From sequence record PQ818763: a stretch of 64,000 bases of DNA. One strand, written 5' to 3'. The position numbers were made by a program, and so were the translations under genes. How positions within the stretch are numbered: position 1 is the stretch's first letter; each line of letters starts with the position of its first letter. Source of the stretch: Shigella phage ShigP1. The notes under the pieces are model-generated. The model did no database searches. It worked only from the letters and a program-made list of their open reading frames with translations, and was not told the origin of the DNA. Below are positions 56,257-57,891 of this stretch, one piece after another.

Positions 56257-57450
56257 TTAGTAGTTTACAACAGTGCCATCATTCAGGGTAAGACTGTTAA
56301 TCTGCAACACACGACCAAGCTGGCGATCACCAATCGGTGCATTCCACCCAGAGCGGTAGAAGTTACGACCACAGAAGAACAAGATCACATTACTTGCTAC
56401 AGTTGAACCATTCTCAGGGTGCTTGATATTAGCGATGTAATAACCACGACGTAAAGTACGACGGGTTACAGGGTTGATCTCTAACCCTTGTTCTTCCACT
56501 TGCATTGTTTCAGGAACAGGCTCCGAAGACTCTTCAACAACTGGTTCAGCTGTCAATGCAAAGTTCTCGTCATCTGCTGATTCAGCAAACTCTTCCACTT
56601 CTTCAACAGGCAGTTCGTAAGCAACGCGGTAGTCAGGATCAACACCAGAGAAACTCTTAACAAACTCAACGATGTTGTGAGTGTAAGTTTCCAGAGTTGT
56701 TCCAGTCAGGCCCGGAGCTGTATTAACTTCCAGAACCCAAGCGTTAGTACCTTTGCTAATCAGGTCAACAGCACCGAAGTTCAAACCCAGAGCAGATACA
56801 GCTTTGTGGGCTTGAATCAGAACCTGATCAGGCGGCGCATCTTGGAAGTTTGAGGAATAAACCCAACCAGTATGATGGTTTCGAACGTCTTCACGATAGG
56901 AAGGATCTTCACGATAACCATTACGGCGAATCTTTTTCTGAACATAGGTGATAACACCTTCAAACACATGAACACGCCATTCACGACGTGGGCCTAGAAT
57001 GCCACGGGTATAGAGGGGGGCGGGAGCTACACCTTCACCCTGAAGACGAACAGTGATACCTTCTCCAGAATGACCATTCAGAATAGCACGTTCATAAACA
57101 ACACTATCCAGAGTCCACTCTGAAGCCTGAGCAGCACTGTTTGTGTATTCTACAGTATGTACCCCAGCAGCTTCCAAAGTTTGAAATGCTGTCATTTTGT
57201 TAGCGGCTCGGTTCAAGGCAACCACAGAGTTCAATACAGTTGCACCACCAAAGAAAGCATCATTATATCGACGGTTTCCATAGTTGACAACAATATCACC
57301 AACTCGAGAACGATAACGAGAGCCTTCTGATACCAGAGACATTACGTTAGCATTTAAGCGAAGTTCCTGAATCTTAGTGTTAATTGCAGAAGTAAGTTCA
57401 CGAACTGAATCAGAAGGGCCATAAGGAAGAACACGGATACGAGTAGTCAT
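56257..57450 (-). CDS. ATP-grasp-fold ligase with a C-terminal extra domain
   Basis: AWVLEVNTAPGLTG matches the ATP-grasp E-x-N-x-x-PG signature; an acidic linker (EEVEEFAESADDE) and about 130 extra residues follow. Confidence 0.6.
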   Translation of the reverse strand: MTTRIRVLPYGPSDSVRELTSAINTKIQELRLNANVMSLVSEGSRYRSRVGDIVVNYGNRRYNDAFFGGATVLNSVVALNRAANKMTAFQTLEAAGVHTVEYTNSAAQASEWTLDSVVYERAILNGHSGEGITVRLQGEGVAPAPLYTRGILGPRREWRVHVFEGVITYVQKKIRRNGYREDPSYREDVRNHHTGWVYSSNFQDAPPDQVLIQAHKAVSALGLNFGAVDLISKGTNAWVLEVNTAPGLTGTTLETYTHNIVEFVKSFSGVDPDYRVAYELPVEEVEEFAESADDENFALTAEPVVEESSEPVPETMQVEEQGLEINPVTRRTLRRGYYIANIKHPENGSTVASNVILFFCGRNFYRSGWNAPIGDRQLGRVLQINSLTLNDGTVVNY

Positions 57451-57452
57451 TG

Positions 57453-57677
57453 TTAGATACCTTTAAGTTTAAGAATTTCGTTACGAGTTTTTTGAATCTG
57501 AGCTTCAATTTCGAAGTAGTCGTTGAACGCATCGTTCTCTACTTCATCGGATGGTGCATCAATCAGACCGAAAGCGAACGGATACAGCTTTCGCTGCTCC
57601 GTTACCAATTCGATATGAACTCCTATGTAATACTGTAGGAGAGTAATCTTCGGTTTCTTAGGAACCAGATTTGACAT
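57453..57677 (-). CDS. Small hypothetical protein
   Basis: ORF of 74 aa between the ATP-grasp and amidotransferase genes. Confidence 0.35.
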   Translation of the reverse strand: MSNLVPKKPKITLLQYYIGVHIELVTEQRKLYPFAFGLIDAPSDEVENDAFNDYFEIEAQIQKTRNEILKLKGI

Positions 57678-57891
57678 GAGGTTCTACCTTAATGCCTTTG
57701 ATTTTTACATAATCAGCAAGCACGTTGTTGATCACCGTTGGGAAAGGAACCTCAACCTGTGTTTCAAGTACTTGACCAATACCAGCTTGCATCCACTTCT
57801 GGATTGCACGAAGGTTATCACATCCTGTGCTCGTCATCGGGATACGTCGAGTAGTTACAACGTTATCCAGCATCATCTTACGAATTTCCAT
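57658..57891 (-). CDS. Small hypothetical protein
   Basis: ORF of 77 aa. Confidence 0.35.
   Translation of the reverse strand: MEIRKMMLDNVVTTRRIPMTSTGCDNLRAIQKWMQAGIGQVLETQVEVPFPTVINNVLADYVKIKGIKVEPHVKSGS

Follow-up and report, generated by a model that had tools for sequence, protein, structure and literature searches.

What does the ATP-grasp ligase of Shigella phage ShigP1 act on, and are the two small proteins encoded beside it its substrates? The question arises from positions 56257–57891 of a 64,000-nucleotide stretch of the phage DNA (record PQ818763; hereafter the window), where the original prediction, made from the sequence alone, proposed an ATP-grasp ligase with an appended domain and two adjacent small open reading frames (ORFs) that could be its substrates. 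The region 55300–63950 aligns over its full length with sequenced Kuravirus phages of Escherichia (phiEco32, SU10, FS2B, Bas90, and others) at 97.4–99.9% identity. The window is a phiEco32-like Kuravirus, and this near-identity provides a named phiEco32 counterpart for every gene around the locus. The ligase, a homolog of phiEco32 gp80, belongs to the prototype of a described, experimentally uncharacterized phage module and is therefore not novel as an entity. In the reading that we favor, to which we give a probability of about 0.5, the gp80 ligase works in a module that would build a short peptide, the acceptor would come from the host, and the small proteins would be accessory. The features on which the argument turns are the following.

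56605..57450, minus strand: ATP-grasp catalytic core of the gp80 homolog, residues 1–282 (AlphaFold2 model, Foldseek, PDB profile search, invariant residues)
56464..56604, minus strand: disordered acidic linker, residues 283–329 (low pLDDT, composition), with DDENFAL at residues 293–299 (56554–56574)
56260..56463, minus strand: C-terminal small β-barrel, residues 330–397, basic (nine Lys/Arg, three Asp/Glu)
57453..57677, minus strand: gp81 homolog, 74 residues, fast-evolving, kept in position and not in sequence (phrog_13464)
57658..57891, minus strand: gp82 homolog, 77 residues, DUF7195 (PF23825; Pfam E 4.7e-17)

The three ORFs were recovered as predicted, at 56257–57450 (397 residues), 57453–57677, and 57658–57891, and correspond to phi32_80, phi32_81, and phi32_82; the ligase shares 99.5% identity with gp80 of phiEco32, and for the operon as a whole the identity with phiEco32 is 97–100%. 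Their coding status is backed by homologs, with 628 database homologs and matches in 313 phage records for the ligase, 135 phage records for DUF7195 and 95 for gp81, the latter all from Escherichia/Shigella Gordonclarkvirinae, so that they are genuine genes and not chance ORFs. The small ORFs had been placed immediately downstream of the ligase; because all three genes lie on the minus strand, both are in fact 5′ of the ligase gene, between it and a glutamine amidotransferase gene. Only 2 nt separate the amidotransferase stop codon from the DUF7195 ATG, and 2 nt likewise separate the gp81 stop codon from the ligase ATG; the gp81 gene shares its first 20 nt with the end of the DUF7195 gene, and each start has a purine-rich ribosome-binding site. 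This arrangement of abutting or overlapping genes is that of a translationally coupled operon, and the search for promoters or terminators inside the block gave no match above shuffled controls. The earlier description of the locus is thus confirmed in part: it is essentially right except for this orientation and for the sizes of the domains.

The AlphaFold2 model of the ligase has a pLDDT (predicted local distance difference test) score of 85, which exceeds 90 across most of residues 1–282. When compared with the PDB by Foldseek, it gives 453 matches at E ≤ 0.001, headed by Ddl, RimK, and ArgX, and the matches to Ddl, RimK, ArgX/LysX, and PsnB fall between E 1e-13 and 1e-11. The best TM-scores are those of ArgX (3vpb, 0.69), RimK (0.67, with a range of 0.61–0.67), and LysX (0.60). 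RimK structures are also retrieved from the PDB by a profile of 36 homologs (E 5e-6), and the top NCBIfam matches are MptN and rimK_fam, far under their cut-offs. The ATP-grasp signature that had been noticed mid-protein corresponds to Pfam Dala_Dala_lig_C at residues 191–252; this match is sub-threshold and is the only one from Pfam for the ligase. PF08443 does not match the window protein, and several homologs carry a precomputed match to it. With TIGR00768 (RimK family), the ligase scores 32 bits for a cut-off of 143.4, and it reaches the membership threshold of none of the characterized families tested. It does have the hallmarks of the ATP-grasp superfamily, namely the three-subdomain fold, the Mg2+/ATP ligands, and the glycine-rich loop. 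Indeed, Asp229, Glu241, Asn243, Arg190-Asn191, and the loop G126-H-S-G-x-G131 are invariant in the 36 homologs, down to 35% identity, and the invariant residues align with the VD...EVN...PG segment of RimK; position K149 is an Arg in this phage. Judged from sequence and model, the protein looks like an active ATP-grasp ligase, of the RimK/LysX/Ddl class and with intact catalytic residues, as had been proposed, and its closest relatives by profile, Foldseek, and NCBIfam (RimK, LysX/ArgX) act on protein or peptide C-termini. Like these relatives, it would activate a carboxylate as an acyl-phosphate and then add an amino acid, glutamate being the most plausible.

Within Kuravirus, the ligase is a mosaic: residues 81–140, in the central/lid subdomain (about 57031–57210, minus strand), are 40–60% identical, the remainder being about 100% identical, and gp81 and DUF7195 are 100% identical in the same phages. 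The pattern points to recombination, or to diversifying selection acting on the subdomain.

The core is followed by the acidic linker announced by the original prediction, which comprises 47 residues with 16 Asp/Glu and no Lys/Arg and has a pLDDT below 50 over residues 287–327. The extension is shorter than the roughly 130 residues first given, about 115, made up of this linker and a 68-residue folded domain. In the alignment of 36 homologs, the linker differs in both length and sequence; a motif [DE][DE]NF[AS]L is found in 28 of 119 ligase homologs, distant ones included, and its copy here, DDENFAL, looks like a short linear interaction motif. Modeled alone, the 68-residue domain forms an all-β small barrel with a pLDDT of 91. 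In a profile search covering 1.84 billion representative proteins, it is essentially confined to the C terminus of this ligase family; the remaining matches, the only candidates for the domain in other protein contexts, are repeat proteins (SprB, Ig) and apparently spurious. The orthologous ligases of phages LUZ24 (294 residues), O4, CVT22, VPp1, and phi14:2 lack it. The model of its own fold and the profile search show that the ligase carries a true appended domain. The original prediction had named a dimerization element of small-molecule ATP-grasp ligases among the outcomes that would refute it; the barrel is found essentially only in this ligase family and is restricted to a clade, and it is therefore not such an element. 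It is a clade-specific tethered module, which we infer to dock with a protein or a nucleic acid. In the Kuravirus/7-11 clade, the ligase has acquired this basic barrel on a long acidic tether, most likely as a means of docking to a macromolecular partner.

A Foldseek search of the C-terminal domain against viral models returned only the same domain, from Escherichia phage myPSH2311 (BFVD A0A2P1MX52; PHROG 20552), so that in at least one sequenced Kuravirus the barrel is annotated as an 82-residue protein of its own. The separation may reflect a gene that is split within the linker in this phage, or it may be an annotation or sequencing artifact.

The ligase gene belongs to a larger block. In the direction of transcription, the genes are gp88, gp87, a COOH-NH2 ligase type 2 (PF14395), gp85, Amidoligase_2 (PF12224), a class-II glutamine amidotransferase, DUF7195, gp81, and the ATP-grasp ligase, followed by gp79, gp78, a γ-glutamyl cyclotransferase (GGACT), and then the primase-helicase. 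The neighbors of the three genes described above are listed below.

62530..63501, minus strand: gp87 homolog, 323 residues, the most divergent module member (phrog_13102)
61731..62537, minus strand: gp86 homolog, phiEco32-like COOH-NH2 ligase type 2 (PF14395; Pfam E 2.3e-8, over the cut-off)
61104..61721, minus strand: gp85 homolog, 205 residues (phrog_4877), always directly 5′ of the amidoligase
60004..61107, minus strand: gp84 homolog, Amidoligase_2 (PF12224; Pfam E 4.5e-8, over the cut-off)
57894..59924, minus strand: gp83 homolog, class-II (N-terminal nucleophile, Ntn) glutamine amidotransferase (Pfam GATase_6/7; NCBIfam N-terminal domains of GlmS, PurF, and EgtC)
56002–56250, minus strand: gp79 homolog, an 82-residue ORF, 100% identical to phiEco32 gp79
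55331..55750, minus strand: gp77 homolog, γ-glutamyl(amine) cyclotransferase, AIG2-like (GGACT; Pfam E 3.4e-17)

All five enzyme families of the phiEco32/LUZ24-type amidoligase module are present within 55331–62537: three ATP-dependent ligases (ATP-grasp, Amidoligase_2, and COOH-NH2 ligase type 2), a class-II glutamine amidotransferase or amidohydrolase, and a γ-glutamyl cyclotransferase. They are those of the phage amidoligase module of phiEco32, from which PF14395 takes its name ('phiEco32-like COOH.NH2 ligase type 2'), in the same order and with no difference at the gene level. Such a module was reportedly predicted by Iyer, Abhiman, Burroughs, and Aravind in 2009. Passages in papers citing that work present it as a module with a putative role in modifying peptidoglycan, proposed to make unusual peptide linkages and to block superinfection (PMC11945000, PMC10580990), and our literature search found no experimental study of it. 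Because the block combines two ligases of the GCS/GS fold and a RimK-like ATP-grasp enzyme with an Ntn amidotransferase and a γ-glutamyl cyclotransferase, the chemistry of these families would be that of peptide synthesis, amidation, and trimming. The module may thus build, amidate, or trim a short glutamate- or γ-glutamyl-containing peptide.

The distribution of the module bears directly on the acceptor. The same gene order is found in three metagenomic phage contigs (L002–L004), with a ligase identity of 37–40%, in Suseptimavirus SU7 and in Pseudomonas phage LUZ24, and is also described in the LUZ24 relative UFV-P2 (PMC3890496). ATP-grasp, amidoligase, and glutamine amidotransferase genes occur together in Vibrio phage VPp1, Pseudomonas phage O4, Citrobacter phage CVT22, and the crAss-like Cellulophaga phage phi14:2, with an annotated COOH-NH2 ligase also in the last three and an annotated GGACT in phi14:2. 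In these four lineages, an unfiltered hidden Markov model (HMM) search detects no DUF7195, and gp81 and the C-terminal barrel are absent from the loci. Since phages of both Proteobacteria and Bacteroidota have these enzymes with no small protein conserved beside them, the acceptor most likely comes from the host. It would not be encoded by the phage; the candidates are a cell-wall precursor, as in the published proposal, a small host metabolite, or a host protein.

The two small proteins differ in their conservation. ORFs of 66–76 residues occupy the gp81 position in L002–L004 with no detectable similarity to gp81, homolog searches with gp81 return three clusters only, all from close relatives, and no sequence conservation is detectable beyond the Escherichia/Shigella Gordonclarkvirinae. 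We found no gp81 equivalent in the LUZ24 locus. DUF7195 is always directly after the amidotransferase in Kuravirus, L002–L004, and SU7, and LUZ24 gp20, at the same position, is a weak but specific distant relative. Arg15, Pro18, Asp25, Pro49, and Pro51 are invariant across all DUF7195 members, which also have one near-invariant Cys and a variable C-terminal tail rich in Lys, Ser, and Gly; a DUF7195 profile gives nothing significant against PDB sequences. When the window is compared with SU7, DUF7195 ranks first in conservation among the module proteins, with 84% identity, followed by the COOH-NH2 ligase (81%), Amidoligase_2 (71%), the amidotransferase (68%), GGACT (64%), gp85 and gp81 (63% each), the ATP-grasp ligase (59%), and gp87 (54%).

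The acceptors of the nearest characterized ligases are marked by their C terminus, Glu-Glu in S6, EDWGE in LysW, and GGQ/E in Pup, and LysW combines a zinc ribbon with its conserved acidic tail. No such mark is seen here. The C-termini of the proteins at the gp81 position are unrelated (...LKGI, ...EKLK, ...LAVQ, ...KLSA), neither DUF7195 nor gp81 has a zinc ribbon with an acidic tail ending in Glu, and no ortholog of either ends in GGQ or GGE. The proposal that the small ORFs are substrates of the ligase finds little support, because their C-termini are neither conserved nor acidic and four lineages keep the enzymes without either small gene. It is more likely that they act as accessory or adaptor proteins and that the acceptor is host-derived. 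DUF7195 would be a clade-restricted accessory subunit, probably a partner of the amidotransferase that precedes it, and gp81 a rapidly evolving accessory or adaptor protein, neither being a general substrate of the ligase.

Stated more specifically, the substrate proposal makes DUF7195, or less likely gp81, a dedicated phage-encoded acceptor or carrier protein to which all three ligases of the module would attach amino acids, much as in the pairs LysW/LysX, S6/RimK, or Pup/PafA. The action of ArgX/LysX and RimK, the best TM-score neighbors of the ligase, on protein C-termini is in line with this idea, as are the rank of DUF7195 as the most conserved protein of the module, its position kept from Kuravirus to LUZ24, its translational coupling within the operon, and its invariant Asp25. 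We nevertheless consider it unlikely, given that a conserved C-terminal acidic residue or tail is missing from both small proteins, that DUF7195 has neither a LysW-like zinc ribbon nor a Pup-like GGQ/GGE, that gp81 lacks sequence conservation and has no counterpart in LUZ24, that the ligase is found in 313 phage records and a detectable DUF7195 in only 135, that the four lineages named above encode ligase and amidotransferase with no DUF7195, and that DUF7195 adjoins the amidotransferase, not the ligase. An elaborated form, still less probable, would make DUF7195 a phage carrier or scaffold on which the three ligases build a γ-glutamyl-type peptide, most plausibly at Asp25, with the tethered barrel and gp81 holding the complex together; if true, this would be a virus-encoded counterpart of the protein-templated amide-bond chemistry of the LysW and Pup type.

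Adjacency in this block is itself weak evidence, and the small ORFs need not belong to the module, because gp79 is an RNA-polymerase regulator. Directly 3′ of the ligase and kept only in the closest relatives, gp79 binds RNA polymerase, displaces and inhibits σ70, and activates the phage sigma factor gp36, as proven experimentally (PMC12276001). By analogy, gp81 and DUF7195 could be independent host-takeover or regulatory proteins that share the transcription unit with a ligase working without them. The fast evolution of gp81 and its confinement to one subfamily are consistent with this, and unrelated small ORFs are likewise interspersed in the CVT22 module. DUF7195 fits less well, since its exact position after the amidotransferase is kept across lineages in which the ligase identity is 32–40% and no enzyme of the module is as well conserved. 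The possibility that it is a ribbon-helix-helix regulator (Arc, Mnt, CopG, ParD, NikR, or MetJ) was rejected on an hhalign probability of 0.14%, in a rough test with approximate reference sequences. Independent regulators are, in our view, an improbable explanation of the pair.

In every lineage sampled, the module sits among replication genes (primase-helicase, exonuclease subunit, dCTP deaminase), which raises another alternative: the target of the module could be DNA, or nucleotides, at the replication fork; it might, for instance, add amino acids onto bases, with the ligase barrel binding nucleic acid. An internal motif of the amidotransferase, DFDDDIPF, is identical to the last eight residues of the Escherichia coli SSB tail. 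Such an activity would account for the restriction resistance of Gordonclarkvirinae, which is remarkably strong toward restriction-modification systems and for which the modification pathway is not known (PMC11990801), and in viral contigs, genes for thymidine hypermodification are found together with those for amidoligases and amidotransferases (PMC8989533). However, Nanopore comparison of native and amplified DNA of phage Rembedalsseter revealed no modification motif (PMC11780129), this phage being linked to the module only by the genus that it shares with module-bearing UFV-P2 (PMC3890496); the DNA of a module-bearing LUZ24-like phage is cut by 11 of 16 restriction enzymes (PMC11945000); and the Pfam scan of the window region found no 5-hmdU kinase or pyrophosphorylase homolog among the module genes. 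Of the explanations considered, we find this one the least probable.

Several points weigh against the peptide-building module with a host acceptor that we prefer. Its chemistry is extrapolated from distant relatives, the ligase scoring 32 bits for a 143-bit rimK_fam cut-off. The higher identity of DUF7195 than of the ligase between the window and SU7 (84% versus 59%), together with its invariant Asp, is what would be expected of a shared carrier or substrate. The tethered barrel and the ORF at the gp81 position share one clade and could interact, and the four lineages without the small ORFs might encode nonhomologous analogs elsewhere.

Comparison with characterized systems places the ligase close to several of them and within none. 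The RimK family (MptN, CofF), whose namesake is the poly-α-L-glutamate ligase that extends the C-terminal Glu of ribosomal protein S6, provides the best sequence-profile matches and shares the ATP-grasp fold and the Mg/ATP pattern D...E-x-N, R-x-N, and glycine-rich loop, whereas RimK has neither acidic tether nor barrel, the small neighbors here lack the Glu-Glu C terminus of S6, and the score is far under the cut-off. LysX/ArgX with LysW have the highest TM-scores and a small gene beside the ligase gene in both systems; they differ in that DUF7195 and gp81 lack the zinc ribbon and acidic tail and no lysine or arginine pathway genes are present here. Graspetide (microviridin/plesiocin) maturases also have a small ORF 5′ of the ATP-grasp gene, and PsnB is among the Foldseek matches, but the ligase scores 18.5 bits with TIGR04187 (cut-off 350) and 16.3 bits with TIGR04185 (MvdC; cut-off 425), and the small ORFs lack the conserved Thr/Ser/Lys-Asp/Glu core motif of graspetide precursors. 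The γ-glutamyl cycle and glutathione pathways, with a GCS-fold ligase, the ATP-grasp enzyme GshB, an Ntn hydrolase, and GGCT, and the EgtA/EgtC pair correspond to the same set of enzyme folds in one operon; the amidotransferase domain weakly matches EgtC, and the scores stay below the trusted level for all of these families.

The amidotransferase gp83 has its Cys first after the initiator, and its glutaminase site Cys1, Arg28, Asn110-Gly111, and Asp128 (mature numbering, initiator omitted) is invariant in five homologs, as in Ntn enzymes. It also has a long C-terminal extension with CxxC pairs, and this long zinc-ribbon extension and the tethered barrel of the ligase suggest macromolecular partners. 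The gene starts with an ATT codon (59922–59924, minus strand) right before the catalytic Cys codon, in the context ATT TGT GGC ATC GTA preceded by GGTGGA; ATT is also the start in phiEco32 and SU7, and ATG is used in the more distant L002–L005 loci. A frameshifted or truncated gene, suggested by a 563-residue ORF with a TTG start compared with the 676 residues of phiEco32, was rejected after alignment and translation showed the gene to be intact; the short call arises because an ORF finder limited to ATG, GTG, and TTG misses the ATT start. The DFDDDIPF motif lies at residues 406–413 (58686–58709, minus strand) and is kept in SU7, with NDDIPF in L002. In L003 (about 11412) and L004 (about 11478), the amidotransferase has no clean copy of the motif, and FDDKIPF or FDDDIPF instead forms the C terminus of the small ORF just 3′ of the ligase. 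The window contains no detectable OB-fold SSB. The motif may be a docking or mimicry element for SSB-tail-binding proteins.

In the accessible literature, a set that does not include the 2009 paper, we found no mention of the tethered barrel, the top conservation of DUF7195, the ATT start, or the SSB-tail-like motif. What is added here to the described module is the nature and exclusivity of the tethered barrel, a ranking by conservation in which DUF7195 stands out, the phyletic case against the small ORFs as general substrates, and the docking-like short motifs; DUF7195, the barrel, and the short acidic motifs are the parts singled out to probe for partners. The module is widespread: its ligase alone occurs in 313 sequenced phages, which range from phages of E. 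coli and Pseudomonas phages used in therapy to one of the crAss-like group. If the product of the module were known, it would account for an early/middle function conserved in several groups of therapy phages, and it could uncover a novel route by which phages alter proteins, metabolites, or cell-wall precursors of the host.

Among the remaining genes, Amidoligase_2 is kept in all related loci, and the COOH-NH2 ligase is found in L002–L004 by precomputed Pfam matches and is annotated in LUZ24 as well as in O4, CVT22, and phi14:2; at this position, VPp1 has only a 282-residue unannotated ORF. gp85 has positional counterparts in LUZ24, VPp1, O4, and CVT22, with no Pfam match and no significant PDB match. 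gp87 is 54% identical to its SU7 and 25% to its L002 counterpart and gives nothing significant against PDB sequences. GGACT is also 3′ of the ligase in L002–L005, SU7, and phi14:2, and a PADLOC scan of nine module proteins gave no match. The gp88 ORF (63512–63934) is not truly short, as it runs off the end of the window. A dCTP deaminase (50912–51445, minus strand) and a large nucleotidyltransferase (ORF 51455–52825, minus strand) adjoin the replication genes; the authors of the BASEL collection speculate that these two could underlie a DNA modification that would explain the restriction resistance of Gordonclarkvirinae (PMC11990801). The phiEco32 homolog of the nucleotidyltransferase ORF is annotated as shorter, and the PHROG match begins at residue 20.

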